From: Bdellovibrionales bacterium
GTDB lineage: Bacteria; Bdellovibrionota; Bdellovibrionia; Bdellovibrionales; JAUICD01
Assembly: GCA_965203275.1 (NCBI GenBank)
Contig: OZ241865.1
Span: 320,001 to 384,000 of the forward strand
DNA: 64,000 nucleotides
Direction: 5' to 3'
The stretch's first letter is position 1, and each line of letters opens with the position of its first letter. Below the pieces are notes generated by a model. That model saw only the letters and a list, made by a program, of their open reading frames with translations. It did not search any database and had not been told where the DNA came from. This document shows, in pieces, positions 8,115-58,721 of this stretch. A program made the position numbers and the translations under genes.

Positions 8115-8426
8115 TTATTTATCATTAAGAGCATCTTTAATCAAATGGCTTGGCTTAAAAGAAAGAACTTTTCTTTTACTAATTTTAATGCGATCACCTG
8201 TTTGAGGGTTTCGTCCCATTCTTTCTTTTTTTTCCCGTACTGTAAATCGACCAAAACCTGAAATTTTTACAACTCCGTCTTTATGTTTTAAAGTCTCTTT
8301 AATAGTGTCAAAAACCATTTCAACTAAATCATAGCTTTCTTTTTTAGAAAAACCTAACTGAGCATATACCCCCTCCACAAGTTGGGCTTTTGTTATAGCA
8401 GATTGTTGTTTATGATTTGAAGTCAT
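8115..8426 (-). CDS. ihfA: Integration host factor alpha
   Basis: TKAQLVE, VKISGFGRFTVREKKERMGRNPQTG, RKVLSFKPS; ihfA-merR synteny. Confidence 0.9.
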   Translation of the reverse strand: MTSNHKQQSAITKAQLVEGVYAQLGFSKKESYDLVEMVFDTIKETLKHKDGVVKISGFGRFTVREKKERMGRNPQTGDRIKISKRKVLSFKPSHLIKDALNDK

Positions 8427-8434
8427 TGTATTCT

Positions 8435-8502
8435 CCTTTTTAATAATTTAACCTTTTTAATAATTTAACCTTTTTAATAATTTAACCTTTTTAATAATTT
8501 AA
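8435..8502. repeat. 17-bp tandem repeat x4 (cctttttaataatttaa) abutting the ihfA RBS
   Basis: Four exact units read directly. Confidence 0.9.
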
Positions 8503-8808
8503 AAGATGCATTAAAAGATGCAAAACAGTTAAAGGACGCCATTTCAAAGTTATAATGACCCCCTCCCCTAAGTTATTTATTTGTCTCATTGTTTATTAAT
8601 AGCTGATCACACACTTTGTAAGTTATAACCTAACTTAATTTATATTTATATGCAAGTCATTTTAACTAAAATAAAAATCAAAATTTATTTATTGACAAAT
8701 ATAAGGTTAAATTATAGCTATAAATTATGTTATAATCTATCAAAACTATTAAAAAATAAAAAGAAATAATTATATTCACCACTGAATGTTCATTAAAGGG
8801 AGCAAAAT

Positions 8809-16385: not shown

Positions 16386-17489
16386 ATGAGCAATGTTTTT
16401 AGTAGTGCTGTAGATACCTTTTTAGAACCTATTGCTGATCTGTTAGACAATGAGAGCGTCACAGAAGTGATGATCAATGGACCTTACGAAATTTTTATAG
16501 AAAAATCAGGTAAAGTCCATAAGGTTAAAAATCAATTTCCTAATGAAGATGCTCTCTTAGCAGCTATCAACAATATAGCACAAAGCGTAGGTCGAGTGAT
16601 TGACCATGAAAATCCAACCTTAGATGCCCGCTTGCCTCCACCTAAAAACTATCGCATACATGCTGTCATCCCACCTTGTGCTAGGAATGGCACGACCATA
16701 GCTATTCGTAAAGCTTCGAAAGTTCAAATGACCCTCAAAGATTATATTCGTTTTAAAGCTTTGACACCTGATGTGGCTCAATTTCTTGACCTTTCTGTTT
16801 TTTTGGGAAAGAACTGCCTCATCAGTGGCGGAACAGGATCAGGTAAGACAACACTTTTAGGCATTCTAGCAGGTCGTATTCCTAAGGGCCAGAGAGTGAT
16901 TGTGATTGAAGATTCTTCAGAGCTTTCAGTAGAATACGAACATGTTGTTTTTTTTGAAACAAAAATGGCAGATGAAGATGGCAAAGGGGAAGTCAGCATT
17001 CGAGACCTTCTTAAAAGTAGTCTGAGGTTAAGGCCTGATCGTATTATTGTAGGGGAGGTGAGAGGCGGAGAGGCACTTGAACTGATCAGTGCTATGAATA
17101 CAGGACATAAAGGTTGTTTTGGTACAATCCATTCAAATTCTCCAGCTGATGCCCTGGTGAGATTAGAAGCCCTTGCTATGGGAACAGATGCTAAAATTAG
17201 TGAAAAGGCTCTTGGACAGCAAATTGGTTCAGCCATTGATCTGGTGGTGCAAATATCTCGGTTTTCTGATGGGAGCCGACGCATTCACAGTGTAGCCGAG
17301 GTGCTTAATTATGATGCTAAAGGATTTTACAACCTTCGCACTATTTATGAACTAACCAATATGGCAAAAGGAGAGGACGGTCGATTGGTCGGTGAAATTC
17401 AACCTACAGGTATAATCCCCTCTTACATGCATGAGATTGAAGCAAATCGTATCCCCTTCCCCCGAAACAAATTTAAAAAAGTAGCCTAA
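16386..17489 (+). CDS. cpaF: CpaF/TadA-family pilus assembly ATPase
   Basis: GGTGSGKTT, IEDSSEL, LRLRPDRIIVGEVRGGEA, AMNTGH.G..GTIH. Confidence 0.9.
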   Translation: MSNVFSSAVDTFLEPIADLLDNESVTEVMINGPYEIFIEKSGKVHKVKNQFPNEDALLAAINNIAQSVGRVIDHENPTLDARLPPPKNYRIHAVIPPCARNGTTIAIRKASKVQMTLKDYIRFKALTPDVAQFLDLSVFLGKNCLISGGTGSGKTTLLGILAGRIPKGQRVIVIEDSSELSVEYEHVVFFETKMADEDGKGEVSIRDLLKSSLRLRPDRIIVGEVRGGEALELISAMNTGHKGCFGTIHSNSPADALVRLEALAMGTDAKISEKALGQQIGSAIDLVVQISRFSDGSRRIHSVAEVLNYDAKGFYNLRTIYELTNMAKGEDGRLVGEIQPTGIIPSYMHEIEANRIPFPRNKFKKVA

Positions 17490-44134: not shown

Positions 44135-45437
44135 CCGGGATCCCGGGATCTGGGATCCGGCAGTCAGGCAAGGATAAAACGAACGCTTTCTTTCCTTAAC
44201 ATTTCACTCAAAATGAGCCACACCGCTGGTGTGTTTTTTGGTGTTGCCTGCAAAGGCTTTCGCCTTTGACAAAATAGGCAACACCTAAAAAATCCGCTCA
44301 TTTTGAGTAGAGAAGGATCCTTTTATTCTTTTACACCATGTTAAGGAAATTTTTCTTTTATTGTCTTTACAATGAAGGAACTTTTTCCTTAATATTTCAC
44401 TCAAAATGAGCCACACCGCTGGTGTGTTTTTTGGTGTTGCCTGCAAAGGCTTTCGCCTTTGACAAAATAGGCAACACCTAAAAAATCCGCTCATTTTGAG
44501 TAGAGGAGGATCCTTTTATTTTTTTACACCATGTTAAGGAAATTTTTCTTTTATTGTCTTTACAATGAAGGAACTTTTTCCTTAACATTTCACTCAAAAT
44601 GAGCCACACCGCTGGTGTGTTTTTTGGTGTTGCCTGCAAAGGCTTTCGCCTTTGACAAAATAGGCAACACCTAAAAAATCTGCTCATTTTGAGTAGAGAA
44701 GGATCCTTTTATTCTTTTACACCATGTTAAGGAAATTTTTCTTTTATTGTCTTTACAATGAAGGAACTTTTTCCTTAACATGGAGTTAAGGGACGAAGGG
44801 ATCCTCCCTACTAAAAGTAAACGGACTTTTGAGGTAGCCAGCCTTTGATCGACGGCGGTAGCCGTCGGGCTGGCTACCCAAAAGTGACCAGAGGTCAGTT
44901 TACTTTTAGTGCAAAATAGAAGGTCCAAAAAGTAAGAATGATATATACAAAGAAATTGAAGTAAAAACAAATTTTAGTAGTGAGCGTCTAGCCGATCGCC
45001 TCAAAATTGACCTTTCGTTTCTCTGAAAAGGGCTTGACCTGGTGGATATATGAAATTAGAAATAGAATATTCAAGGAAAGGAAATTTTTCCTTAACATTT
45101 CACTCAAAATGAGCCACACCGCTGGTGTGTTTTTTGGTGTTGCCTGCAAAGGCTTTCGCCTTTGACAAAATAGGCAACACCTAAAAAATCCGCTCATTTT
45201 GAGTAGAGGAGGATCCTTTTATTCTTTTACACCATGTTAAGGAAATTTTTCTTTTATTGTCTTAAGAGCAAGCTCAATGCAATGAAGGAACTTTTTCCTT
45301 AACATGGAGTAAAAAAATGAGGAGATCCTCCCTACTAAAAGTAAACGGACTTTTGAGGTAGCCAGCCTTTGATCGACGGCGGTAGCCGTCGGGCTGGCTA
45401 CCCAAAAGTGACCAGAGGTCAGTTTACTTTTAGTGCA
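44135..45437. repeat. Structured repeat cluster: 193-bp unit x3 plus a repeated forward/reverse unit pair before mglA
   Basis: Units start at ~44205, 44398, 44591 and 45101; reverse units at ~44770-44912 and 45293-45437. Confidence 0.92.
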
Positions 45438-45456
45438 AAATAGATAGAAGGTCCAA

Positions 45457-47733: not shown

Positions 47734-48021
47734 TTAGCTTAGATTGTTTAGTTTTTTCTGTATTTCTCGTATTTTGTTCTCTGTGGACTCTGTGATTTTT
47801 GCAATGGTTGAAATATCCATGTTATTTTTAAGCATTTTTAAGATAATATCTTGCCTACCTTCTTGCCTACCTTCTTGCCTACCTTCTTGCCTACCTTCTT
47901 GCCTACCTTTCTCTCGGCCAATCTGAATGCCTTTCTCTTGGCCAATCTGAATGCCTTCTTCTCGGCCAATCTGAATGCCTTTTTTCATAGTTCCTTCTAT
48001 GGTAAAATCAAATGCTTCCAT
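47734..48021 (-). CDS. Putative internally translated Rpn C-terminal small protein (RpnS-like, 95 aa)
   Basis: In-frame ATG at 48021 preceded by AGGAGG (ttaggaggagaaaatattATG). Confidence 0.6.
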   Translation of the reverse strand: MEAFDFTIEGTMKKGIQIGREEGIQIGQEKGIQIGREKGRQEGRQEGRQEGRQEGRQDIILKMLKNNMDISTIAKITESTENKIREIQKKLNNLS

Positions 48022-48924
48022 AATATTTTCTCCTCCTAATTGTTGGGTCACTTCTTTTGAAGCTGATTGAACAACTTCTTTACTTAACTGATTATTGTAC
48101 TGATAAAAATAAGTCATCGCTTTAGTGATGAGTTCTATTATATACTTTTTATCGGTACTTTGCGACACTTTTTTCACAAATGAAAAAAATTTTATGAAAA
48201 AATCATGCTGTTCCTTTGTACTTTTTCTACTATCTAAAGACCAAATACCCTGAAATAAATGCAAAATAGGGCTGATCATTGAACCTTTTGCCTTCGCTTC
48301 TATATCATAAACCGATAGATCAAATGGTACATAAGAAAAATTCATAAGGTAAGGAGCAATAAGACTGCGAGAATGATCAGGAAAATAACCTTGAGATTCT
48401 AAGTAATCATGGAAAGAAATAGGCACTGTCCATTTTTTCATCCCGTGATAAAAAACAATAGGAATTACTGGATAACCATATTTTTCATAGACTGTAGCCT
48501 GATATTTTAACAATTGTTTTAAGACATTATGGTCTGGCCAGCTTTTGTGTTCTAAGAGAAAGATAAATTTGACTGTTTTTTGAGAGTTTTTAAGGGTCAA
48601 TGAAATAAGAAGATCTATTTGCATTTCTATACCTGCTATTAAAACATTCTTTTCTATTTTGAGCGAATCAAGGTTAAAAAGATTTAGAAATGCCTGAGAA
48701 AAAACAAGTTTTAGAAAAGCTAATATGTTCTCTACATTATCAAAAAATCTCTTGAAAGACAAGTCATGGACATGAGCTTGAGAAATAGCTTGTTGCCTTT
48801 CTTTTTGAGCTTGATTCTTAAGATGATTTTGTTTCACTTGATTCATTTTGCATAGAATAAACATATCTTGATGGAATGTCAAATACGTTTGTTTCATTGT
48901 TTCACTAAAAGTGGGCTGTTTCAC
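47734..48924 (-). CDS. Rpn-family PD-(D/E)XK nuclease (true start likely further downstream, ~48846)
   Basis: HD..FK, IDLL, LLEHKS.PD, Q..KY, PVIPIVFYHG; C-terminal G.QIG.E.G/GRQE repeats and KML..MDISTIAKIT HTH. Confidence 0.88.
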   Translation of the reverse strand: MKQPTFSETMKQTYLTFHQDMFILCKMNQVKQNHLKNQAQKERQQAISQAHVHDLSFKRFFDNVENILAFLKLVFSQAFLNLFNLDSLKIEKNVLIAGIEMQIDLLISLTLKNSQKTVKFIFLLEHKSWPDHNVLKQLLKYQATVYEKYGYPVIPIVFYHGMKKWTVPISFHDYLESQGYFPDHSRSLIAPYLMNFSYVPFDLSVYDIEAKAKGSMISPILHLFQGIWSLDSRKSTKEQHDFFIKFFSFVKKVSQSTDKKYIIELITKAMTYFYQYNNQLSKEVVQSASKEVTQQLGGENIMEAFDFTIEGTMKKGIQIGREEGIQIGQEKGIQIGREKGRQEGRQEGRQEGRQEGRQDIILKMLKNNMDISTIAKITESTENKIREIQKKLNNLS

Positions 48925-49700
48925 TAAAAGTGGTCTAGCCTCTGGCTACTTTTGGGCAATGACCGCAAAGGCTTTCGCCTTTGACAAAATGGTCATTGCC
49001 TCATTTGATTTGCACTAAAAGTAAACTAGCCTCTGGCTACTTTTGGACATTGCTCTGACAGCTATCGCTGTCCAAAAAGAGCAATGTCTCAAAAGTCCGT
49101 TTACTTTTAGTAGGGAAAGATCCTCTTGTCTCTTAACATGATGTTAAGGAAAAAGTTCCTTCATTGTAACCCGCTTGCTCTTAAGACAATAAAAGAAAAA
49201 TTTCCTTAACATGGTGTAAAGGAATAAAAAGATCCTTTTCTACTCAAAATAAATGGATTTTCTAGGTAGTTAGCCTTTGATCGACGGCGACAGCCGTCGG
49301 GCTAACTGCCAGAAAACATGCCAGAGGCATGATTTATTTTGAGTGAAATGTTAAGGAAAAAGTCGTCCTCTTTCTACCGCCCACACACGGGCGAGGTTGG
49401 CTCACTAAAAGTGGTCTAGCCTCTGGCTACTTTTGGGCAATGACCGCAAAGGCTTTCGCCTTTGACAAAATGGTCATTGCCTCAAAAGCCTGACCACTTT
49501 TAGTAATGAGGATCCTCTCGTCTCTTAACCACATGTTAAGGAAAAATTTCCTTAACATGGTGTCAGAAGCAAGGAGATCCGCTCTACTCAAAATGAGCAG
49601 ATTTTTGAGGCATTGCTCTTTTGGGACAGCGTGAGCTGTCAGAGCAATGCCCAAAAACACACCAGAGGTGTGGCTCATTTTGAGTGAAATGTTAAGGAAA
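48903..49700. repeat. Structured repeat cluster abutting the CRISPR trailer
   Basis: Units at ~49012-49155, 49200-49345, 49402-49545 and 49548-49686. Confidence 0.88.
49370..49393 (-). CRISPR. Orphan truncated CRISPR repeat (24 of 28 nt)
   Basis: ctttctaccgcccacacacgggcg, preceded by the same ~33-nt flank as the terminal array repeat. Confidence 0.85.
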
Positions 49701-49710
49701 AAGTCGTCCT

Positions 49711-50461
49711 CTTTCTACCGCCCACACACGGGCGTAACATAATGAGGCTCTAACTAAAACCCTTAAAGTTCTTTCTACCGCCCACACACGGGCGTAACAC
49801 GTTCCTAGTGAGACAATTAATGACGTTAAACTTTCTACCGCCCACACACGGGCGTAACAATTACCTCTCAGTGTAATATCCTCGTCCATTCTTTCTACCG
49901 CCCACACACGGGCGTAACAATTACCTCTCAGTGTAATATCCTCGTCCATTCTTTCTACCGCCCACACACGGGCGTAACAATTACCTCTCAGTGTAATATC
50001 CTCGTCCATTCTTTCTACCGCCCACACACGGGCGTAACTTAAAGACGATGAGTTTAGGATTCAAGTGCTTGCTTTCTACCGCCCACACACGGGCGTAACT
50101 TAAAGACGATGAGTTTAGGATTCAAGTGCTTGCTTTCTACCGCCCACACACGGGCGTAACTTAAAGACGATGAGTTTAGGATTCAAGTGCTTGCTTTCTA
50201 CCGCCCACACACGGGCGTAACGAGGTACTCTAGTCATTGCTTCTTCTTTTACACTTTCTACCGCCCACACACGGGCGTAACTCACACTCACTGCCAAAGT
50301 TGGCACACTTCTTCTTTCTACCGCCCACACACGGGCGTAACAAATTCTAAGAGAGTTTTGGAAAAAAGAAAAACTTTCTACCGCCCACACACGGGCGTAA
50401 CAAAAATCACATTGTAAGTGAAGATAGCCGGTTCTTTCTACCGCCCACACACGGGCGTAAC
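49711..50461 (-). CRISPR. CRISPR array: 13 identical 28-bp repeats (GTTACGCCCGTGTGTGGGCGGTAGAAAG), 12 spacers of 32-33 bp, 8 unique
   Basis: Read directly. Hairpin CGCCC-GTGTGT-GGGCG followed by an 8-nt handle GTAGAAAG; lies immediately downstream of cas2. Confidence 0.98.
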
Positions 50462-50503
50462 ACTTCTATAAAAACATTTAACAATAACAAATAGTTAAAC
50501 ATT
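50462..50503 (-). promoter_or_regulatory. Short AT-rich CRISPR leader with IHF-like site (50485-50497)
   Basis: taacaaatagtta is one mismatch from WATCAANNNNTTR and lies ~23 bp from the first repeat. Confidence 0.5.
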
Positions 50504-50788
50504 TCAATTTATTTCTATTAAATGATTAAAAATACCTTCATCAGTTTGACGGCTCTTTAAATCACCAAAAACATAAGAGCGAAACCCTAAGTGATGAGTC
50601 CCATCAGACCATATAAACACCACTCTAAAATCTTCATTATTTTTTCTTAACTCTTTTAAAATATCTTCTCTAATACCATTTTTAGGCCAAACCCATACAT
50701 CCATTGCAATTCTCCAGCAATATCTGCCAATGATCCCACGGGCTTTATGACTTTTTTCTTTTAAAGCATCATTAATAATAACAATCAT
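50504..50788 (-). CDS. cas2: Stand-alone Cas2 (type I-E-like)
   Basis: 94 aa overlapping the cas1 stop; RG..........VW....IREDIL..L...RVVFIW....GF...FG....DEG resembles I-E Cas2. Confidence 0.75.
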   Translation of the reverse strand: MIVIINDALKEKSHKARGIIGRYCWRIAMDVWVWPKNGIREDILKELRKNNEDFRVVFIWSDGTHHLGFRSYVFGDLKSRQTDEGIFNHLIEIN

Positions 50789-51657
50789 TTGCTTTCTTGC
50801 TTAAAAACTTCATTCAATGTTTTGACTAAATAATCTAAAACATCTATTCCTAAAACTAATTTCATAAACTGATTCTTTATTTCTGTTAAACTCCACTCTT
50901 TTTTAACAGCAAGAAAAGACAACTCTAAAGCAATCACAGGTTTAACCACATCAGCGAGATCGTAAGACAAACCTCCTCCTTTTGTCCTGCCATGCAGTAT
51001 GCCAATATTAGGATCATAACCTAAATGTAAAATTGTTAAATCTGCAAGTGAATAAGACAAAAAGTTTAAAAAAGTCAGAGGATCTTTTTTACCTCTATAA
51101 GGCTTTCCTCTTTTCACAAAAGGCACTCCATAATCAATAGCTAATAACTTATAAGCCTCTCTAGCCCATGCTCCTTCCTTTGCTAAAAGGGTATTAATAT
51201 TGTCCCCTTCTTGAGCAGATGGAAATTCAAGTAATTTCACAGAAGAATATTTTTTTATAAAAGTAGCTCTCTTTTGAAAAAGAATCTTTGCAACATTTAT
51301 TCTTCTTTTCTCATCAAATATGACATCATGTTGCCTGATACGAGGAGAAGGAGATCTATGCTGTGTAGAGCATAAATAAAGAGGAGCAGCATTCCCACCC
51401 ATCACACCAATCAAGCAACCTCTCGATGAGATAATTCTCATAGATTCTGATGTGATACTTGTCCCTGGCCCTAAAAACAACCCCCCTATTCCACACACAG
51501 GAATAGAATACTCCTCTTTTAAACCCTTCTTGAAAATTCTTATATCGTTATCCTTTCTCTTGATCTTACTATATTCTATATAATAAAAAGGAATTCTTCT
51601 CGATAGAGGAATCAAGGGTTGTACTTCATCAATACTTATATACTTTCTTTTATTCAT
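50785..51657 (-). CDS. cas1: Cas1 (I-E/I-F clade)
   Basis: IP.....LFLGPGTSIT..SMR, KEG...R..Y, N..SY, LGY.P.IGILHGRT.GGGL.YDLAD..K. Confidence 0.92.
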   Translation of the reverse strand: MNKRKYISIDEVQPLIPLSRRIPFYYIEYSKIKRKDNDIRIFKKGLKEEYSIPVCGIGGLFLGPGTSITSESMRIISSRGCLIGVMGGNAAPLYLCSTQHRSPSPRIRQHDVIFDEKRRINVAKILFQKRATFIKKYSSVKLLEFPSAQEGDNINTLLAKEGAWAREAYKLLAIDYGVPFVKRGKPYRGKKDPLTFLNFLSYSLADLTILHLGYDPNIGILHGRTKGGGLSYDLADVVKPVIALELSFLAVKKEWSLTEIKNQFMKLVLGIDVLDYLVKTLNEVFKQESK

Positions 51658-51674
51658 TTTTTAATTAACATATT

Positions 51675-54191
51675 TTATTTCTTTAAAATTTTTAATAAAT
51701 CTTCTTTAACCAATCCAAACTTTTTATGATACACCCGATGCTCTGTTTTATTGTTATCTTGATCTTTGAGATGTTCTGATAAGCATTGATTAATTTCTTC
51801 ATCAACATGAGAACACAATAAAGGTCTCTCTAACTTAAAGCCATAAATCTTAATGTACTTATTAAATTCAAAAACTTCTTCACTATTATTGATTTGATTA
51901 GCCTTTTGACATTTACTTTTTGTTTCTAAACATACCCTCATAGCTTCTGTTATTTTTGTAATAAACCAGTCTCTACTTTCACTGAGCAAACAGACTCCTT
52001 GCAATTGCTTGACTGGTTGGCCATCATCATCTACAACACAGGCACTTAAAAGCCGAGATTCCCCTCTAAATAAACTATTAAACACTTGTGCTTTTTTGTT
52101 TTTCCCTGATAAAGACCTTTTTGGAATATACTTATTCAAATCTTTAATAGCTTCTGTTTGTTGTCGCTCTAAAATTTCACAAGATACTTTGATATTTTCA
52201 TCAGTCCAAAAATTATCATAAGCTTTCATAAGATCTCTTATGGTGATAAAATTTCCATCCTGCTGTTGAATAAAATCTAAAAGATAACCCTGCCATTTTT
52301 TATGAATTTCTTGAAAATCAGCTTTTCTTTTATTAAAAAACTTTTCTGTCTCATCATTGTAGATAAAACATATCTGTGCATCTTTTTTATTCTCAAATCG
52401 ATTGATTCTTCCAGCAGTTTGACAGTCCGCATGAGGTTGCGATAATTCTACAAGAGCTTTTTGAAAGCTTAAGTTATAAGAAGATTGCAACATCTTTGAT
52501 GTGATCACTGATTTGTCACTGATGAGTATCTTTTTTGATCCATGCTCTTGCAAAATAGATTCTAATAATTCTTTTTTATCCTCATCAGTGAAATAAGAAT
52601 GAATAAGTTTTATTTGATCTGTCTGTGCTTTTAAAAGTTTAGCAAAAATTTCTTGGCTATTTTCTACTCTTAAAAAAGAATACAAACAATCAGGTTTAAA
52701 TGTATTGATTTTTTCTATTTTCATGCTTTGAGCAGAGATTTTAAATTTATGGTTCTCTCTGGCTGAAAGCTGATCTCTTTTAAAAACACAGCTATCTTCT
52801 ACAGAGATGTATTTTAATAAAGAAGGGTCTGGTGTGCCACTCAACATCAACGTTTTAACTTCTGAGTGAAGCCAACGGCTCCTTATTGTGAGTATTTCTT
52901 TTAAAGCAGGGATCATTTTAGGGTGTTCTTTAAACTCATGGAATTCATCTAAAACCAAATGAGAGCGAAGCATCTTAATAAATTCAGAAGACTGGCTCCT
53001 CTTATAATAAGGGCTTAAAAACCTATCAAAAACCATAATATTAATATCTGAAGTTAAAAGCTCGCTACTTTTTTCTGCCTCCGGATTACAACGTTTTCTT
53101 TCTCCATTAAAAACACCTTCTATTTTGATATTATGATATTTACCATAAATTCTTTTACAATCTTCCTTAATGGAATAAAACAAACCTGTCACCTGATGTT
53201 GTCTTGGCAAAGCTATGATCAATGGATGTTTATTTTGACAGTGATGCCACCAATAAAGAGCAATGCTGGTCTTACCTCCAGCAGGATCAACTCCACAAAC
53301 AGCAAGTTTTTTATTAGACTTAGACATTTTATAAGCTAAATCATTTTGTTCTTTGCTCTTTGAGTTTTTATTAAGATTTTCCATAATATGAAATGGTAGC
53401 TTTTTTTCTGCAAAAATTGATTTTCTATCTTTCCAGTTTTGTAAAAACTCTTGAAGTTCAGTGATATCCCATAAAGACACAGCTCTATCAGATTCAAGAA
53501 GTAAGTTAAGACAAATTTGTTTAAAGGCATTATCATAAACAGTTTCTGATTCGTGTTTGAAAAACTTAGGACATTGTATTTCTTCAATATCATCATTGGG
53601 TTCTTCTAAATCAGGTTTATTGCTATTCTGATCATACAAAGGAAAAGAATCAAAAAGCTCTTTAACAAACTTATATATATTCTGTTTTATATTGTCTTCT
53701 TCTATTTTCTCAAATATGACTTTAGAATTTTCAAATCTTAATGTATCTTCTTTATCATTACAATTAGCAGGATGATGCCAATAAACAGAATGACGAACAA
53801 TATCTTTAATTTTTCCATTATTAAATCTTACAAAGTTAGCAATGTAGGCCCATGAAATTTCATTATGAAATGGTCCTTTAAAACTTTTTGGCCTAAAAGA
53901 TTCAGCATCCATGGGTATCTCTTTGAAATCATCTTTGACGTTTGATTTGCTGTGAATATATTTTTGAAAATCTTTTGAGACCTTCCCTATATCATGGAGC
54001 AGGCCAGCAGAGATCAAACATTTATTGAGTTGTCTTTCTTTATCAGGTTTGAAGTTTAATGATTTGAGCAGTAAGTGACCATAAAGGGCTACAGCCATAG
54101 AATGCTCTTTTAAAGGTTGCCCTTTTGTGTTAGCTAATAAAGTGCTTTCATTATTTTTTTGCTTTTGATTCATTGTCTTTTTCCCAATCAT
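51675..54191 (-). CDS. cas3: Cas3 HD nuclease-helicase, not fused to Cas2
   Basis: EHS, LLHDIGK, HNEIS and WHH (HD domain); PAGGKT, VLDEFH, LSGT, LIHS.F and QTAGRINR (SF2 helicase). Confidence 0.9.
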   Translation of the reverse strand: MIGKKTMNQKQKNNESTLLANTKGQPLKEHSMAVALYGHLLLKSLNFKPDKERQLNKCLISAGLLHDIGKVSKDFQKYIHSKSNVKDDFKEIPMDAESFRPKSFKGPFHNEISWAYIANFVRFNNGKIKDIVRHSVYWHHPANCNDKEDTLRFENSKVIFEKIEEDNIKQNIYKFVKELFDSFPLYDQNSNKPDLEEPNDDIEEIQCPKFFKHESETVYDNAFKQICLNLLLESDRAVSLWDITELQEFLQNWKDRKSIFAEKKLPFHIMENLNKNSKSKEQNDLAYKMSKSNKKLAVCGVDPAGGKTSIALYWWHHCQNKHPLIIALPRQHQVTGLFYSIKEDCKRIYGKYHNIKIEGVFNGERKRCNPEAEKSSELLTSDINIMVFDRFLSPYYKRSQSSEFIKMLRSHLVLDEFHEFKEHPKMIPALKEILTIRSRWLHSEVKTLMLSGTPDPSLLKYISVEDSCVFKRDQLSARENHKFKISAQSMKIEKINTFKPDCLYSFLRVENSQEIFAKLLKAQTDQIKLIHSYFTDEDKKELLESILQEHGSKKILISDKSVITSKMLQSSYNLSFQKALVELSQPHADCQTAGRINRFENKKDAQICFIYNDETEKFFNKRKADFQEIHKKWQGYLLDFIQQQDGNFITIRDLMKAYDNFWTDENIKVSCEILERQQTEAIKDLNKYIPKRSLSGKNKKAQVFNSLFRGESRLLSACVVDDDGQPVKQLQGVCLLSESRDWFITKITEAMRVCLETKSKCQKANQINNSEEVFEFNKYIKIYGFKLERPLLCSHVDEEINQCLSEHLKDQDNNKTEHRVYHKKFGLVKEDLLKILKK

Positions 54192-55317
54192 ATTTTTTAA
54201 ATTCTTTTATTCCTGCTTTTCTTAATTGATATATCTCTACAAAAATTGGATCTTTTGTCTCATAACCACGTCCCATTTCCTCAAGGCCATCATAATCCAC
54301 AAAAACCACACCTCCTTCGCCCCATCTAGCTAGGTTTGGCCCTTGTTTGAACTTTTGGATCATATCTTCCCAAGCCGAGGAATTTTGGTTTTCTTCAAAA
54401 GCTTCTTGTGATAAATAAATATCAAAATCCACACAAGCAATATAAGCCGGTGTCCCCCTCACAACAGAATAATATTGTTTATCTATCCATTGTTTGGTAT
54501 TATTCAAATCAGTAAAAACACTAAATTTGCCATAACGAGATTTTTTTATTTGATCTAAAAAATCAGTATCTAAGTCACATAAATGGCAAATTTTTTCTAT
54601 CAGCTTTAAAACTTGTGTACTTATAGATTTTTCATCTTGTATTCTTTTTAAAGCTGTATTGATACCATCTTTTAATTTTGATTGAGGGATTTTTTCATCT
54701 ATAATTTGACTTAGTTTGAGTGCATCTTGTTTTAACTTTTCATATTCTTCTTTATTTTTCTTATATGTAATAACAGTTTCTTGAAAGAGAGAATAAATAT
54801 TTGAAAGAGATAAAGACAAGGAAGCAGATTGTAATATCTTCACTAAAGGCTTTCCTAAAAGTTTTATTGTGGGATCCGCATGTTCAAAAGGATGGTTATG
54901 GAGATTCACTTTAGGGTGATCAGAAAATTCAGATTTTTTATAATGGGTGTCTTTCCTTTCAAAAAAAGTCGTGATATGAGGTTCTGATATTTTTTTAATA
55001 GCTACTGTTTGTACTATGGCATCTAAGGTAGAATTAAGCTTTTGAATAGACGGCTTTTGACTATCTTCTATTTTCTTTATCTTTTGCGTCTCCCCCATAA
55101 GGTAAGAAAATAATCCCTTGAGAGAACTCTCCCTGACAAGAGATAAGACTTTTTGAGAGCTATGTTTGGGGTGAGGAATTAATTTAATATCCTTTTCTCC
55201 TGTCTCTTGTGGTGGATAAAGAAATAATTTGCCAATTTTTATTCTCTCCCATGCTTTGTCTTGCCTGATATAAATACCGCCTGACCGGACTTTTAATTTA
55301 ATGTATGACATAATCAA
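54151..55317 (-). CDS. cas5: Cas5fv-like subunit (type I-F2), divergent
   Basis: SSLKGLFSYLMGETQKI resembles the Cas5 N-terminal motif, with a central helical insert and C-terminal GPNLARWGEGGVVFV glycine loop; follows cas7fv. Confidence 0.6.
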   Translation of the reverse strand: MIMSYIKLKVRSGGIYIRQDKAWERIKIGKLFLYPPQETGEKDIKLIPHPKHSSQKVLSLVRESSLKGLFSYLMGETQKIKKIEDSQKPSIQKLNSTLDAIVQTVAIKKISEPHITTFFERKDTHYKKSEFSDHPKVNLHNHPFEHADPTIKLLGKPLVKILQSASLSLSLSNIYSLFQETVITYKKNKEEYEKLKQDALKLSQIIDEKIPQSKLKDGINTALKRIQDEKSISTQVLKLIEKICHLCDLDTDFLDQIKKSRYGKFSVFTDLNNTKQWIDKQYYSVVRGTPAYIACVDFDIYLSQEAFEENQNSSAWEDMIQKFKQGPNLARWGEGGVVFVDYDGLEEMGRGYETKDPIFVEIYQLRKAGIKEFKKYDWEKDNESKAKK

Positions 55318-56246
55318 TCCTCAGTTACTTCTTTAAATTCTTTGAAAAAATGATGAAATTCTATCTTACTTAATTCTTCTTTCAGTTTAGACTCTTCAGC
55401 ATCTATTGTATCTTCACCATCAAAAAAAGAAACTTTAAGTGATCCCTTTTGATAAGCTAATCTGGATCCTGCTTTTAACCCATGAATACTACGTATTCTT
55501 AGAAAAACAACTTTCACAAGGTGCCTTATTTGTTTTTGATTCAATAAAATCCCCTCTCTTGGAACTTTATAAATAGCATCTTTGTCAATGTATTTTTTGA
55601 TTTCAAGAGCAGAGTCGACACCATGTTTTTCAAAATACTCTTTAAGAAGCTCTAAACATTTATCTTTATCTTTTTTGTTGATCATAGAAAAATCGTTATC
55701 TACCCCATAGAGAGATAAAAATTGAAGCTCTTTAAGATTTATCCCACCTAAAAGCTTTTGTTTCCTATAGGGCAGGTTATCTTTTGAAAACATGGACGTA
55801 TCACTTTTATCTTCACCCTTTTTATTTTTCTCTTTTCCTTCTTTTGGCTTAGAACTACTCCCTTGATCAAAAACAATATCTAAATGATCAGTAGTTACCG
55901 CATCTGCTATATGTAAAGGAGAACATTTTTTAAATCCATCATCGGGTGATAAATAACCTCTTAAAAGCCCTACTTCTGAGGCTACCATTTCAATAAATTT
56001 ATCAGCAAAAATTTTATTTGAAGGTTGTCTGGGTTGAAGGTCTTTAAATATCTCATGCCTCAAACAACGCGAAGATGTGTAATCTTTTCTTCTCTTTTGA
56101 CTTTGATCTACATTTTGAATTTCAGTGAAAGTCTTTGCACACAAATGATTCTCATGTCCATCTCTTTTACCAACTTTGTTGTAATTATAGACACCCCAAA
56201 CATCTAAAAGACCTTCAAAGGTAATAGTTTTAATTGATTGACTCAT
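55314..56246 (-). CDS. cas7: Cas7fv backbone subunit (type I-F2 / I-Fv)
   Basis: IKTITF..GVYNYN..NH..K, Y.S..CLRH.IF, AS..GLLRGY, K..SPL, TSMFSK, LQFLSL and GILLN match my recollection of the Shewanella Cas7fv motif order. Confidence 0.8.
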   Translation of the reverse strand: MSQSIKTITFEGLLDVWGVYNYNKVGKRDGHENHLCAKTFTEIQNVDQSQKRRKDYTSSRCLRHEIFKDLQPRQPSNKIFADKFIEMVASEVGLLRGYLSPDDGFKKCSPLHIADAVTTDHLDIVFDQGSSSKPKEGKEKNKKGEDKSDTSMFSKDNLPYRKQKLLGGINLKELQFLSLYGVDNDFSMINKKDKDKCLELLKEYFEKHGVDSALEIKKYIDKDAIYKVPREGILLNQKQIRHLVKVVFLRIRSIHGLKAGSRLAYQKGSLKVSFFDGEDTIDAEESKLKEELSKIEFHHFFKEFKEVTED

Positions 56247-56257
56247 AATAATCCTCC

Positions 56258-56815
56258 TTATTTCATTAAAATTAATCCATAGCCGTAGGATTTTCTAGAT
56301 CCTACGCCCTTACTTAAAGCTTGATTGAATTTATGATGATCTAAAATATGAAATTTTCCCTCAATGCTAAAAATATTGTGAATAGTAAAATAAATATCCT
56401 TTTTATCTTCTCTCCGAGGTCCAAGAAACTGACAGGATACCTGATCTCCCTTGAGACCTGTCATAAAGCAAAACTTCTCTAAGGCTTTATCTTGGTTTAT
56501 TTGAGGATAGATGTTTTTTTGTCCTCTTTTATTTTCCGGAATAATATTTTTTTTGTGTCTATTGCAAAACGAAACATGAGTTTCTAATGCCACTGTCTTA
56601 TCATCCTCATTGATTAGACTCATTTTTTGAGTGCTGTGATGTAATGGTTTAGCAGGTGGAAGTGTGGAAAGAACATACAGCAAATCACCTTGAGACAGTG
56701 ACGGACAGATATTTTGAGGAGAATTAAATAACTCTCTAATCAATGAATGAACAGAAGAATAACCAGCTTCAAATAAAGAAAAACAATAAATATTTACTTG
56801 ATTTTTCAATGTCAA
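56258..56815 (-). CDS. cas6: Cas6 endoribonuclease (Cas6e-like)
   Basis: YS.VH..I..LF N-terminus, L.VLS..PP, and C-terminal F..AL.KGVGSRKSYGYGLI G-rich loop. Confidence 0.82.
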   Translation of the reverse strand: MTLKNQVNIYCFSLFEAGYSSVHSLIRELFNSPQNICPSLSQGDLLYVLSTLPPAKPLHHSTQKMSLINEDDKTVALETHVSFCNRHKKNIIPENKRGQKNIYPQINQDKALEKFCFMTGLKGDQVSCQFLGPRREDKKDIYFTIHNIFSIEGKFHILDHHKFNQALSKGVGSRKSYGYGLILMK

Positions 56816-56844
56816 AATGACCTCACTTTAAATTGAGAAAAAAA

Positions 56845-56889
56845 CTGAACAGAAATATTCTGAGCAGAAATATTCTGAACAGAAAGATT
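56845..56889. repeat. 15-bp direct repeat x3 (ctgaacagaaatatt) upstream of cas6
   Basis: ctgaacagaaatatt / ctgagcagaaatatt / ctgaacagaaagatt. Confidence 0.85.
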
Positions 56890-57321
56890 TAAGTTTCTTC
56901 TTTCAAATTTTTCTTGGAACTCTTTTCCTTGTTTTTTGTCAAAGTTTGATGAGGGGATGGATTGTCAAACTACATTAAAATATTTTCCTAACCACATTAA
57001 CCTCTCCCCCTTTTCATAATCTATCGTCATAGTCAGACCAAGACTTTAGTCTTTATGAAAGGAAATTTTATTTATATGAAAAGTGTTTCATATTGAGGCA
57101 AAAAAGCAGGGCAGGACTCTTTAAACCCTTAAGTGCTAGATTCTAAATGCTCGATTTACTGCAATGAACAAAGAGAATACAAAGAGCGTCATTATAATAA
57201 TACTGAAAATCTACATGAACATTTGAAGGTTGTTAAGCTCAGGCAAACTCAGGAAAAAACAGATATTGTCATCCCTAACCTAAACTGAGAGGCCCCAAAA
57301 AAGCTTTGCTGGTATTTTTAT

Positions 57322-58721
57322 GAGCTTGTCCCTGATATCGGTGAAAATAGACGGCTCATAAATTAGTTTTTAATTGTTTTTTCTTTTTGTCAATAATAAT
57401 TTTTTTTAAACTTTGTTCTAATTGTTCTAAATCTTTAAATCCTTTAATGCTTTTGAAATGTTTTTCTGCTTCCAATAGACTCACAGCAGACCATCTTAAA
57501 ACTTGATCTGAAGAAGAACTCCAATTCTTTACCCTCCGAACTTTTTCCCTCACAACTGAAAAAACAGACTCAATAGGATTTGTCGATGATAATGACCTCC
57601 TTAAAAGTAATGAAACTCCAAGCTTGATCGTTGTCAGTGTCTCCATCTCTGCCTCTTTTAAAGATGTGAATGCTGAATGATTGACCCGCTTTAACCAGCT
57701 TAATAAAGACTCATGCTCTAACTTCGATGACAACTCATCTGGCATACCATGTAACTTCTTCCAACGACTCTTAAACTCTATGTGACGACTTGGAGGTAAG
57801 CAACTCAGAATATTTCTCTCTTTATGCTGAATACAACGCTGAACTACTGAACGACCTGAAAATACTCTATCTATTCCCTTCCTTAATGCTTTGCTACCAT
57901 CAATCACAAAAAGATAACCCTTCTCTTTATCAAGACCACGACCTATAAGTCCCTCCAGAAGATCACGGCAAACTTCCCAACTCTCTGTATTGCCTTCTTT
58001 AAGACCTAATATAACCTTCTTACCTTGATCTGTGATTCCTAAGGCCACTATAACCAGCGTAGAACCAATACCCACTCCATCTATCATTATCGCTGGAAAC
58101 CTGTACTTACTTAAATCACGATTGTTAATCGACTCAAGGGCTTGTTTAGATGACTTATTAAAAACTCTACTCACACTACTCCTAGAAAGTTTAAGCCCTC
58201 CTGAAATATCATCTAAAAGATGATTGTAATTCCGTGATGAAACTCCACTCATGGCATGTTTTAAAACACGATCACTGAGTATGTCATAGTGTTGAAGGGC
58301 TGAATAGATCTTAAGCCTCACTTCACGACCTGACTGCTTAACACGAGGCTTCCTAACCTGCAACTTTTGACCACCTGCAAGTATGCTACCTTTATCACTA
58401 CCAGCTCTATGATATGGTGTATCTCTATGACGACCATAACGCTCACCGCAAAGCTCTAATAGCTCTGCTTCAAAAAAACCATAGACCGAACAAAGAATAG
58501 ATGACTTGATCTCATCCTCTACAATCTGACGAATTTCTGACAAAGTATTGGCTGAAACTTGAAATGAATGACTATTTTTGGTACACTTCATAATGGCTCC
58601 TTTCTTTTTATTTTTAAAAGTTAATTGTTAATAAAATTTGGTTGGCTGAAATATGCCAACCAGGAGCCTTCTATCTTAACATCTTCTCTAAGAAAAATTC
58701 ACCGAATTATAGGACATGCTC
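57322..58721 (-). mobile_element. IS256-family insertion sequence (1400 bp) with imperfect terminal IRs and an 8-bp target duplication
   Basis: IRs gagcttgtccctgatatcggtgaa and (rc) gagcatgtcctataattcggtgaa; atttttat duplicated at 57314-57321 and 58722-58729. Confidence 0.92.
57356..58591 (-). CDS. IS256-family (Mutator) DDE transposase
   Basis: GVSSRNY, IMIDG, ALGI...G.K.ILG, FVIDGSK.L, QRCIQHK.RN, STNPIES. Confidence 0.92.
   Translation of the reverse strand: MKCTKNSHSFQVSANTLSEIRQIVEDEIKSSILCSVYGFFEAELLELCGERYGRHRDTPYHRAGSDKGSILAGGQKLQVRKPRVKQSGREVRLKIYSALQHYDILSDRVLKHAMSGVSSRNYNHLLDDISGGLKLSRSSVSRVFNKSSKQALESINNRDLSKYRFPAIMIDGVGIGSTLVIVALGITDQGKKVILGLKEGNTESWEVCRDLLEGLIGRGLDKEKGYLFVIDGSKALRKGIDRVFSGRSVVQRCIQHKERNILSCLPPSRHIEFKSRWKKLHGMPDELSSKLEHESLLSWLKRVNHSAFTSLKEAEMETLTTIKLGVSLLLRRSLSSTNPIESVFSVVREKVRRVKNWSSSSDQVLRWSAVSLLEAEKHFKSIKGFKDLEQLEQSLKKIIIDKKKKQLKTNL

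Follow-up and report, generated by a model that had tools for sequence, protein, structure and literature searches.

The 64,000-nt stretch of contig OZ241865.1 from a Bdellovibrionales bacterium, referred to here as the window, carries on its minus strand a CRISPR-Cas locus that we interpret, with reasonable though far from complete confidence, as a minimal but complete type I system, encoded on the chromosome and belonging to a separate lineage that is related to type I-F and branched off early; its Cascade would work like that of type I-F2, and its kin would have donated the I-F2 effector. Judged from its sequence, the system is real, conserved and probably functional. There is about an even chance that the window system and its relatives, together called the family, represent an uncatalogued, subtype-level branch of type I that is sister to all I-F systems and predates both the Cas2-Cas3 fusion and Cas6f, in which case the Cas8-less Cascade would be ancient and I-F2 a hybrid. 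The locus consists of six intact open reading frames (ORFs) arranged head-to-tail and bounded by a gene of the IS256 family (57356-58591) on one side and a CRISPR array on the other, in the order cas6-cas7-cas5-cas3-cas1-cas2-array that a preliminary description of this DNA had already given:

56258-56815, minus strand: cas6, 185 aa; assigned by PF08798 and an AlphaFold2 (AF2) model
55314-56246, minus strand: cas7, 310 aa; divergent Cas7fv (Cas7f2) backbone subunit; assigned by NF040577, 5O6U and 9G44
54151-55311, minus strand: cas5, 386 aa; predicted Cas5fv fold with inserted helical domain; assigned by structure only
51675-54191, minus strand: cas3, 838 aa; stand-alone HD nuclease and superfamily 2 (SF2) helicase of the I-F2 lineage; assigned by PADLOC Cas3fv
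50785-51657, minus strand: cas1, 290 aa; separate deep clade; assigned by tree and topology tests
50504-50788, minus strand: cas2, 94 aa; separate gene; weak PF09707 match
50462-50503, minus strand: leader, 42 bp, AT-rich, from the cas2 stop to the first repeat
49711-50461, minus strand: CRISPR array, 13 repeats and 12 spacers
49370-49392, minus strand: isolated partial repeat within a duplicated segment downstream of the array

There is no space for Cas8 or Cas11 at the locus, as had been proposed, because open stretches in the flanks do not exceed 51 codons on the upstream side (56816-57355) and 93 on the downstream side (48925-49710). The Pfam families Csy1, Cse1 and Cse2 each gave no match in the host genome (2.57 Mb, 90.4% complete), in searches of limited sensitivity, since the corresponding controls were positive in one of 14 genomes each. 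Contigs of the public run X3, which may be related to the source sample, span positions 50434-57000 with zero letter differences from the window, and near-identical DNA was found in runs of several studies, sponge metagenomes among them; no RNA run was listed as carrying the locus.

The proteins of the putative Cascade were assigned by profile and fold. By sequence comparison Cas7 is a divergent Cas7fv, as had been noted before: it matched NF040577 (Cas7fv) with 104.6 bits, below the NCBIfam equivalog cut-off of 200, it identified 5O6U (E 7.8e-10) and 9G44 (E ~8e-10) in the PDB, and profile-profile comparison with I-F2 Cas7 yielded a probability of 99.6% (E 1e-24). The 386-residue Cas5, whose start ATG at 55311 agrees with that of its homologues, showed no Cas match in Pfam, NCBIfam or PADLOC; a search of PDB sequences with the protein or its profile returned nothing meaningful, and the ESM Atlas gave no usable match. 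When 32 Cas5 relatives were scanned, two displayed faint matches to Cas5fv (E 0.003 and 0.03) and two to other Cas5 profiles. An AF2 model based on 53 sequences (predicted local distance difference test, pLDDT, 89.4) gave just two Foldseek matches at E<=0.001, 5o6u_F (E 3.7e-6) and 9g44_B (E 1.4e-4). We take both chains to be Cas5fv, from their size (331-336 residues versus 315-322 for the Cas7 chains) and from general knowledge of these complexes. Superposition of the model on 5o6u_F with VIA-align resulted in a Z of 10.0 and a root-mean-square deviation (rmsd) of 5.8 over 267 aligned residues at 12% identity, the next chain reaching a Z of 5.6. The model contains a helical insert at about residues 147-266, and the same region carries insertions of up to ~115 aa in relatives. 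From its modelled fold, the 54151-55311 protein is predicted to be a Cas5fv-type subunit that binds the 5' handle and reads the protospacer adjacent motif (PAM). That it might instead be a Cas8, a possibility raised earlier, is ruled out by this fold; the listed matches contained no Cas8 chain, although this by itself would not exclude one. A 565-aa protein (P0130) on a 6.8-kb contig appears to be a natural fusion of a distant family Cas5 with a Cas6e-like domain.

Cas6 matched PF08798 with E 8e-8 in an alignment spanning the C-terminal glycine loop, and its His23 and the C-terminal glycine-rich loop are invariant in an alignment of eight family members. The AF2 model (pLDDT 81.7, eight sequences) superimposed best on E. 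coli CasE (4u7u_D; Z 15.2, rmsd 3.1, 163 residues aligned) and also matched T. thermophilus Cse3 (Foldseek E 3e-8), and hhalign gave 95.6% against Cas6e and 0.15-0.64% against Cas6f, the lowest value being that of I-F2 Cas6f. Window Cas6 is hence predicted by modelling to be a CRISPR RNA (crRNA) maturase of the Cas6e-type fold, in line with the Cas6e likeness initially recognised. An AMA-1 match of Cas6 was held to be due to chance, as the model matches Cas6e. The constituents of the minimal three-protein Cascade of Cas7fv-, Cas5fv- and Cas6e-like proteins that the preliminary description had put forward are thus borne out by profiles and folds.

Cas3 begins directly with its HD domain, the first HD motif being located at residues 25-31, and possesses no N-terminal Cas2, as had been claimed: the PADLOC Cas3fv profile matched (E 3e-55) from profile position 100, past the Cas2 part. 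The sole PDB match was the I-F2 Cas3 9g44_A (E 7e-29). The HD, DEFH and VI motifs are present, and the Walker A motif keeps GKT with an alanine three places before the lysine, where the references have glycine. Cas1, in which E161, H222 and D236 are invariant, scored almost equally with Cas1e (114.3 bits) and Cas1f (113.2 bits) profiles; in another comparison of profile scores I-F reached 277 and I-E 234. Cas2 is indeed a separate gene, with an ORF of this type at the same place in all six related loci (N-terminally damaged in L004), whereas the proposed I-E likeness turned out to be weak. The match to PF09707 (E 1.2e-4) is below the gathering score, hhalign probabilities were 21% for Cas2e, 2% for the I-F1 domain and 1% for the I-F2 domain, and the Atlas returned Cas2 clusters weakly, at 0.77-0.79. 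These comparisons weakly suggest that window Cas2 is nearer to Cas2e than to the Cas2 domain of I-F, and this is the weakest of the six assignments. The Cas2 domains of I-F1 and I-F2 matched each other with 100%, and neither Cas2 nor Cas6 of the window groups with its I-F2 counterpart, a point singled out earlier as one to check. A complex prediction for two copies each of Cas1 and Cas2 scored 0.09 and was not used as evidence either way.

The array comprises 13 identical 28-bp repeats and 12 spacers, nine of 32 nt and three of 33 nt; the sizes of repeat and spacers are I-F-like, as stated at the outset. Eight of the 12 spacers are distinct, two being present in triplicate. The repeat is predicted to form a 5-bp GC stem and, behind it, a free 3' tail of 8 nt (hairpin -10.1 kcal/mol, z -2.3); the stem is conserved in the repeats of relatives, where its innermost pair is either A-U or G-C. 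An Rfam scan yielded no CRISPR family match for the window repeat. In all seven loci, the window included, the leader is 17-61 bp long, far below the 150-bp leader folded by Cas1-2/3 and integration host factor (IHF) that is reported in the accessible text of 10.1101/2023.05.26.542337. Because the leader is so short, one might speculate that spacer integration is independent of IHF or makes use of the cas2 end. One run X3 contig matches the triplicated 32-nt spacer at 49859-49890 and continues into non-array sequence, with at least 255 unrelated letters beyond the match, rendering it a candidate protospacer. Otherwise, the single match obtained with the window array (35 nt, 86%, E 0.8) was put down to chance, phages yielded nothing for the L005 array, one spacer searched against viral contigs had no match, the seven loci inspected from a protospacer search in 301 genomes of the host's class were repeats or noise, and no full-length self-target was found outside the array. 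These searches thus recovered no protospacer together with its PAM side. The I-F2 PAM is GG according to the accessible part of PMC4605320; it cannot be assumed for the window system because its Cas5 is only 12% identical to that of I-F2.

Some peculiarities were observed around the arrays of the family. Locus L001 contains, at 8271-8481 and 16610-16820, two copies of a unit consisting of a repeat, 155 nt and a degenerate repeat, placed roughly 1 kb upstream of the cas6 gene and where the array ends; the unit might be a mini-array with a regulatory role or a mobile element that has picked up the repeat. The duplicated end at 49307-49393 of the window is similar to this unit. In L003 a GC palindrome (8766-8792), presumably resembling a type I-E repeat, directly follows the last array repeat. 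Many array repeats of L002 (15964-16915 and 18225-18446) have internal duplications of their 3' part, for which assembly error or slippage is possible. Single repeats or short arrays of the family repeat occur in L073, L074 and L075, and the family Cas7 was found in none of these three genomes.

Searches for homologues retained 56 of 1319 candidates for Cas7, 35 of 4107 for Cas5 and 49 of 1255 for Cas1, and Cas5 clustering at 50% gave 43 representatives. A genome scan yielded 60 pattern matches, six of which were confirmed as related loci, located in five metagenome-assembled genomes of Bdellovibrionota and one unclassified bacterium. All six share the order cas6-7-5-3-1-2-array and matching repeats, so that the same arrangement, whose occurrence elsewhere was to be checked, does exist in other genomes. 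The loci L002, L003 and L005 are intact; in L001 cas3 is split and in L006 cas7 is split. The locus at L004 (11073-14602), which has been inserted behind secY into a cluster of ribosomal protein genes, is decayed, with cas5 fused in frame to an HD-less cas3 and most of cas1 deleted. In addition, a metagenome contig (one of 105 matches) carries cas6-cas7-cas5 up to the contig end. The family is rare, occurring in three of 401 genomes of the phylum with the host genome counted, and no relative was found on viral contigs by Cas7, repeat pattern, Cas1 alignment or a distant Cas5. Ratios of nonsynonymous to synonymous substitution rates relative to L002 and L003 were 0.08-0.25 in nine of 12 gene pairs, the remaining three being saturated. 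The ratios that could be computed point to purifying selection.

The relationship of the family to I-F2 was addressed by phylogenies of Cas1 and Cas3. The Cas1 tree comprised 40 rows after near-duplicate, truncated and type II Cas1 had been left out, among them 15 family rows, four from inspected loci and 11 from homologues. The family formed one clade (100/99) that was sister (98/96) to all ten I-F rows (seven I-F1 and three I-F2), with I-F2 nested inside I-F1, and a clade of the family and I-F2 was rejected by the approximately unbiased (AU) test (p-AU 6e-5). In contrast, in the Cas3 tree (24 rows, Cas2 domains removed), the family was sister to I-F2 Cas3 only, with 100 in the Shimodaira-Hasegawa-like approximate likelihood ratio test (SH-aLRT), and I-F1 and I-F2 as one clade were rejected (p-AU 0.0004). 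A tblastn search of plasmids with Cas3 gave four matches, all in I-F2-type records, and the three of these loci that were inspected are annotated with cas7fv/cas5fv.

The two histories meet within I-F2 itself. I-F2 shares 70-74% identity in Cas1 and 76-78% in the Cas2 domain with I-F1 of Methylococcaceae, and 23-24% in the rest of Cas3. In bit score, this Cas3 remainder reached 82-110 with the window and three close relatives and 60 with L005, compared with about zero for I-F1, and the I-F2 Cas2-3 alignment turns into HD sequence like that of the window immediately behind the Cas2 domain. I-F2 Cas6f is interleaved with I-F1 Cas6f. Similarly, in Shewanella strains with I-F and I-Fv systems Cas1 is 99-100% and the first 94 aa of Cas3 are 100% identical, with no similarity of the Cas3 proteins beyond, as stated in the accessible text of PMC4605320, which names no source of the foreign part. 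As Cas1 and the Cas2 domain are near I-F1, the Cas3 body is unlike I-F1 and Cas6f is interleaved with that of I-F1, canonical I-F2 is, at the level of sequence, a mosaic of I-F1 cas1, cas2 and cas6f and a foreign cas3-cas7-cas5 block. The family is by the same comparisons the nearest known kin of this block, and I-F2 probably received its DNA-targeting genes from the lineage of the window system. On the assumption that type I-F derives from an I-E-like ancestor, and because none of the window genes has a close partner among the sampled I-E or I-F genes, the Cas6e and free Cas2 of the family may be read as retained ancestral states.

Several observations weigh against this interpretation. Gene context is not visible for 11 of the 15 family Cas1 rows, three of which lie on contigs of the same size as Cas7 matches. 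The trees are small, with long branches and skewed composition, the Cas3 tree stems from a quick search without bootstrap and leaves the branching order of I-E, I-F1 and the family with I-F2 unsettled, and the I-F2 references are three sequences from two genera. Cas5 was assigned on structure alone, with a profile-profile probability of 2.7% and a TM-score of 0.36-0.40. Three of the six related loci (L001, L004, L006) bear lesions. Finally, the family is only a sister of the I-F2 effector (Cas3 26-29% identical), and the donor itself has not been seen.

A grouping of family Cas1 with I-E is not rejected by the AU test (p-AU 0.066), which leaves some room for an old chimera, in which an I-F2-type cas7fv/cas5fv/cas3 block took Cas6e, Cas2e and perhaps Cas1 from I-E or IV-A and then diverged; such a system would still work as a three-protein Cascade. 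The Cas6e fold, the best Cas2 score being that of Cas2e, the cas1-cas2-array order typical of I-E and the shuffling of modules, called common in the accessible text of PMC12669027, all agree with such an origin. We nevertheless consider it unlikely, as Cas1 is nearer to I-F in the tree (98/96) and in the profile scores (277 versus 234), L066, the sole I-E system sampled from this phylum, has no close Cas1, Cas3 or Cas6, a quick Cas6 tree places the family weakly beside Cas6f (82) and not within I-E, and both the length of the repeat and the 32-nt spacers resemble those of I-F. Of the two readings offered in the preliminary description, 'intermediate' between I-E and I-F consequently fits, and 'chimeric' or 'recombinant' fits less well, because no gene of the window system has a near neighbour in the I-E or I-F systems sampled; Cas6 and Cas2 resemble I-E only at a distance, and it is canonical I-F2 that shows the clear mosaic signal.

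The two triplicated spacers, the upstream IS256-family gene, the lesions among the relatives and the slightly atypical Walker A motif would also be compatible with a window locus that is inactive or decaying, or with a Cascade that needs an unrecognised large subunit encoded elsewhere. Both appear quite improbable: the six ORFs are intact in the window, L002, L003 and L005, purifying selection is seen, no gene beyond the six cas genes was found to be shared among the flanks of the loci, searches of the genome for Csy1, Cse1 and Cse2 gave no match, its other CRISPR loci look like class 2, and the run X3 contig matching the triplicated spacer is a possible live target. Very improbable, and largely refuted, is a rearranged, fast-evolving ordinary I-F2 with split Cas2-3 and with Cas6f and Cas1 diverged beyond recognition: its three-protein Cascade and repeat and spacer sizes as in I-F2 (accessible text of PMC11343773) and the affinities of Cas7 (profile), Cas5 (fold) and Cas3 (profile, tree) stand against the rejected Cas1 grouping with I-F2, the Cas6e fold with 0.15% for I-F2 Cas6f, and a Cas2 at 1% for an I-F2 domain that its I-F1 counterpart matches fully.

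Compared with known systems, the window system, interpreted as an early-branching I-F-related lineage, resembles type I-F2 (I-Fv) of Shewanella putrefaciens CN-32 (5O6U, 5O7H, 9G44) in lacking Cas8 and Cas11, in its Cas7fv- and Cas5fv-type subunits, in a Cas3 of the same lineage, in the 28-bp repeat and 32-nt spacers, and in the size of the Cascade genes (~2.65 kb; 2.4-2.8 kb for I-F2 according to the accessible text of PMC11343773, which counts 93 I-F2 systems of five genes). It differs from I-F2 by a Cas6e fold instead of Cas6f, by a separate Cas2 instead of one fused to Cas3, by a Cas1 from a separate clade (28-31% identity) that is sister to I-F rather than inside it, by the order cas6-7-5-3-1-2-array instead of cas1-2/3-7-5-6, by a Cas5 that is 12-13% identical and missed by Cas5fv profiles, and by the 17-61-bp leader and mostly Bdellovibrionota hosts of the family. 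It would resemble I-F2 in its working but lacks three I-F2 features, Cas6f, the Cas2-3 fusion and a Cas1 inside I-F. With type I-E of E. coli and T. thermophilus it shares the Cas6e fold, a stand-alone Cas3, a separate Cas2 (weakly Cas2e-like in the window) and cas1-cas2-array at the operon end, but it is without Cas8e and Cas11e, its Cas7, Cas5 and Cas3 are not of I-E type, its repeat is 28 bp long, and the best tree puts its Cas1 outside I-E. Type I-F1, including the compact ICP1 phage system, matches in repeat and spacer sizes and in Cas1, for which the window protein is sister to the whole I-F clade, whereas Cas8f (Csy1), Csy2, Csy3, Cas6f and the Cas2-3 fusion are missing from the window and its Cas3 scores about zero bits against Cas3f1.

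The cas6e-cas7-cas5-cas3-cas1-cas2 architecture was not found in the literature searched, most subscription papers being beyond reach, and it is not described in the accessible parts of PMC7162821 and PMC10734277. PMC12669027 mentions an 'I-F variant intermediate between I-F1 and I-F2', shown in its Extended Data Fig. 1, which like the window system is rare, unclassified and I-F-related as far as its one-sentence description allows comparison; the accessible text describes no variant of the present architecture. The two may be the same system, though the F1-F2 wording does not describe a Cas6e or an unfused Cas2.

A mode of action can be proposed on this basis. Judging from their orientation, operon and array would be transcribed in one direction. 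The modelled Cas6e-fold nuclease would, by analogy to Cas6e and Cas6f, cut at the 3' base of the repeat hairpin and produce crRNAs of ~60 nt with an 8-nt 5' handle, which one Cas5, six Cas7 and one Cas6 would assemble into a Cascade without large or small subunit. For I-F2, the accessible text of PMC12956352 describes that the helical domain of Cas5 senses the PAM, six Cas7 carry the guide and the displaced strand, and Cas3 docks directly on Cas7/Cas5. Correspondingly, in the window system the Cas5 helical domain may read the PAM, the Cas7 backbone may guide the displaced strand, and free Cas3, in which the motifs are present, may dock on Cas7/Cas5 and degrade the target. Cas1 and free Cas2 would add 32-nt spacers at the short leader. 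While the family would have kept the unfused Cas2 and Cas6e-like states, canonical I-F2 would have arisen when a family-type cas3-cas7-cas5 block replaced the effector genes of an I-F1 locus, joined just behind the Cas2 domain, with I-F1 cas1, cas2 and cas6f kept.

Further CRISPR loci are present in the same 2.57-Mb genome at 238802-245700, 1990534-1995100 and 2266383-2278444 (contig C1); judged by ORF size and layout, one looks like type V and two look like type II. Two of the three have a broken or truncated cas1, and in one an unexplained ORF of 274 aa separates cas1 from the large nuclease gene. Positions 44175-45444 and 48914-49700 of the window belong to a long palindromic interspersed repeat family resembling miniature inverted-repeat transposable elements (MITE) or repetitive extragenic palindromic (REP) sequences, a patch of which had 3902 BLAST matches in ~279 clusters across the host genome. 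Positions 47734-48924 are occupied by a nuclease gene of the Rpn/YhgA-like (ISNCY) kind, close to whose 3' end lies a 12-bp tandem repeat.

I-F2 is usually seen as a reduced I-F, and reductive evolution is also the explanation given in the accessible text of PMC4605320, yet I-F1 has nothing close to the I-F2 Cas7, Cas5 or Cas3 body. The family would supply a source lineage for these effector genes, with a complete adaptation module of its own. It allows tests of whether targeting without Cas8 is old, of the contribution of the Cas2-Cas3 fusion to primed acquisition, given a natural pairing of an I-F-related Cas1 and an unfused Cas2, and of the way in which spacers are inserted next to a leader of 17-61 bp. 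It also offers dozens of compact Cascades with a natural stand-alone Cas3 and possibly different PAMs. Because the family Cas5 escapes current Pfam, NCBIfam and PADLOC profiles, such systems have probably been missed or mis-typed.

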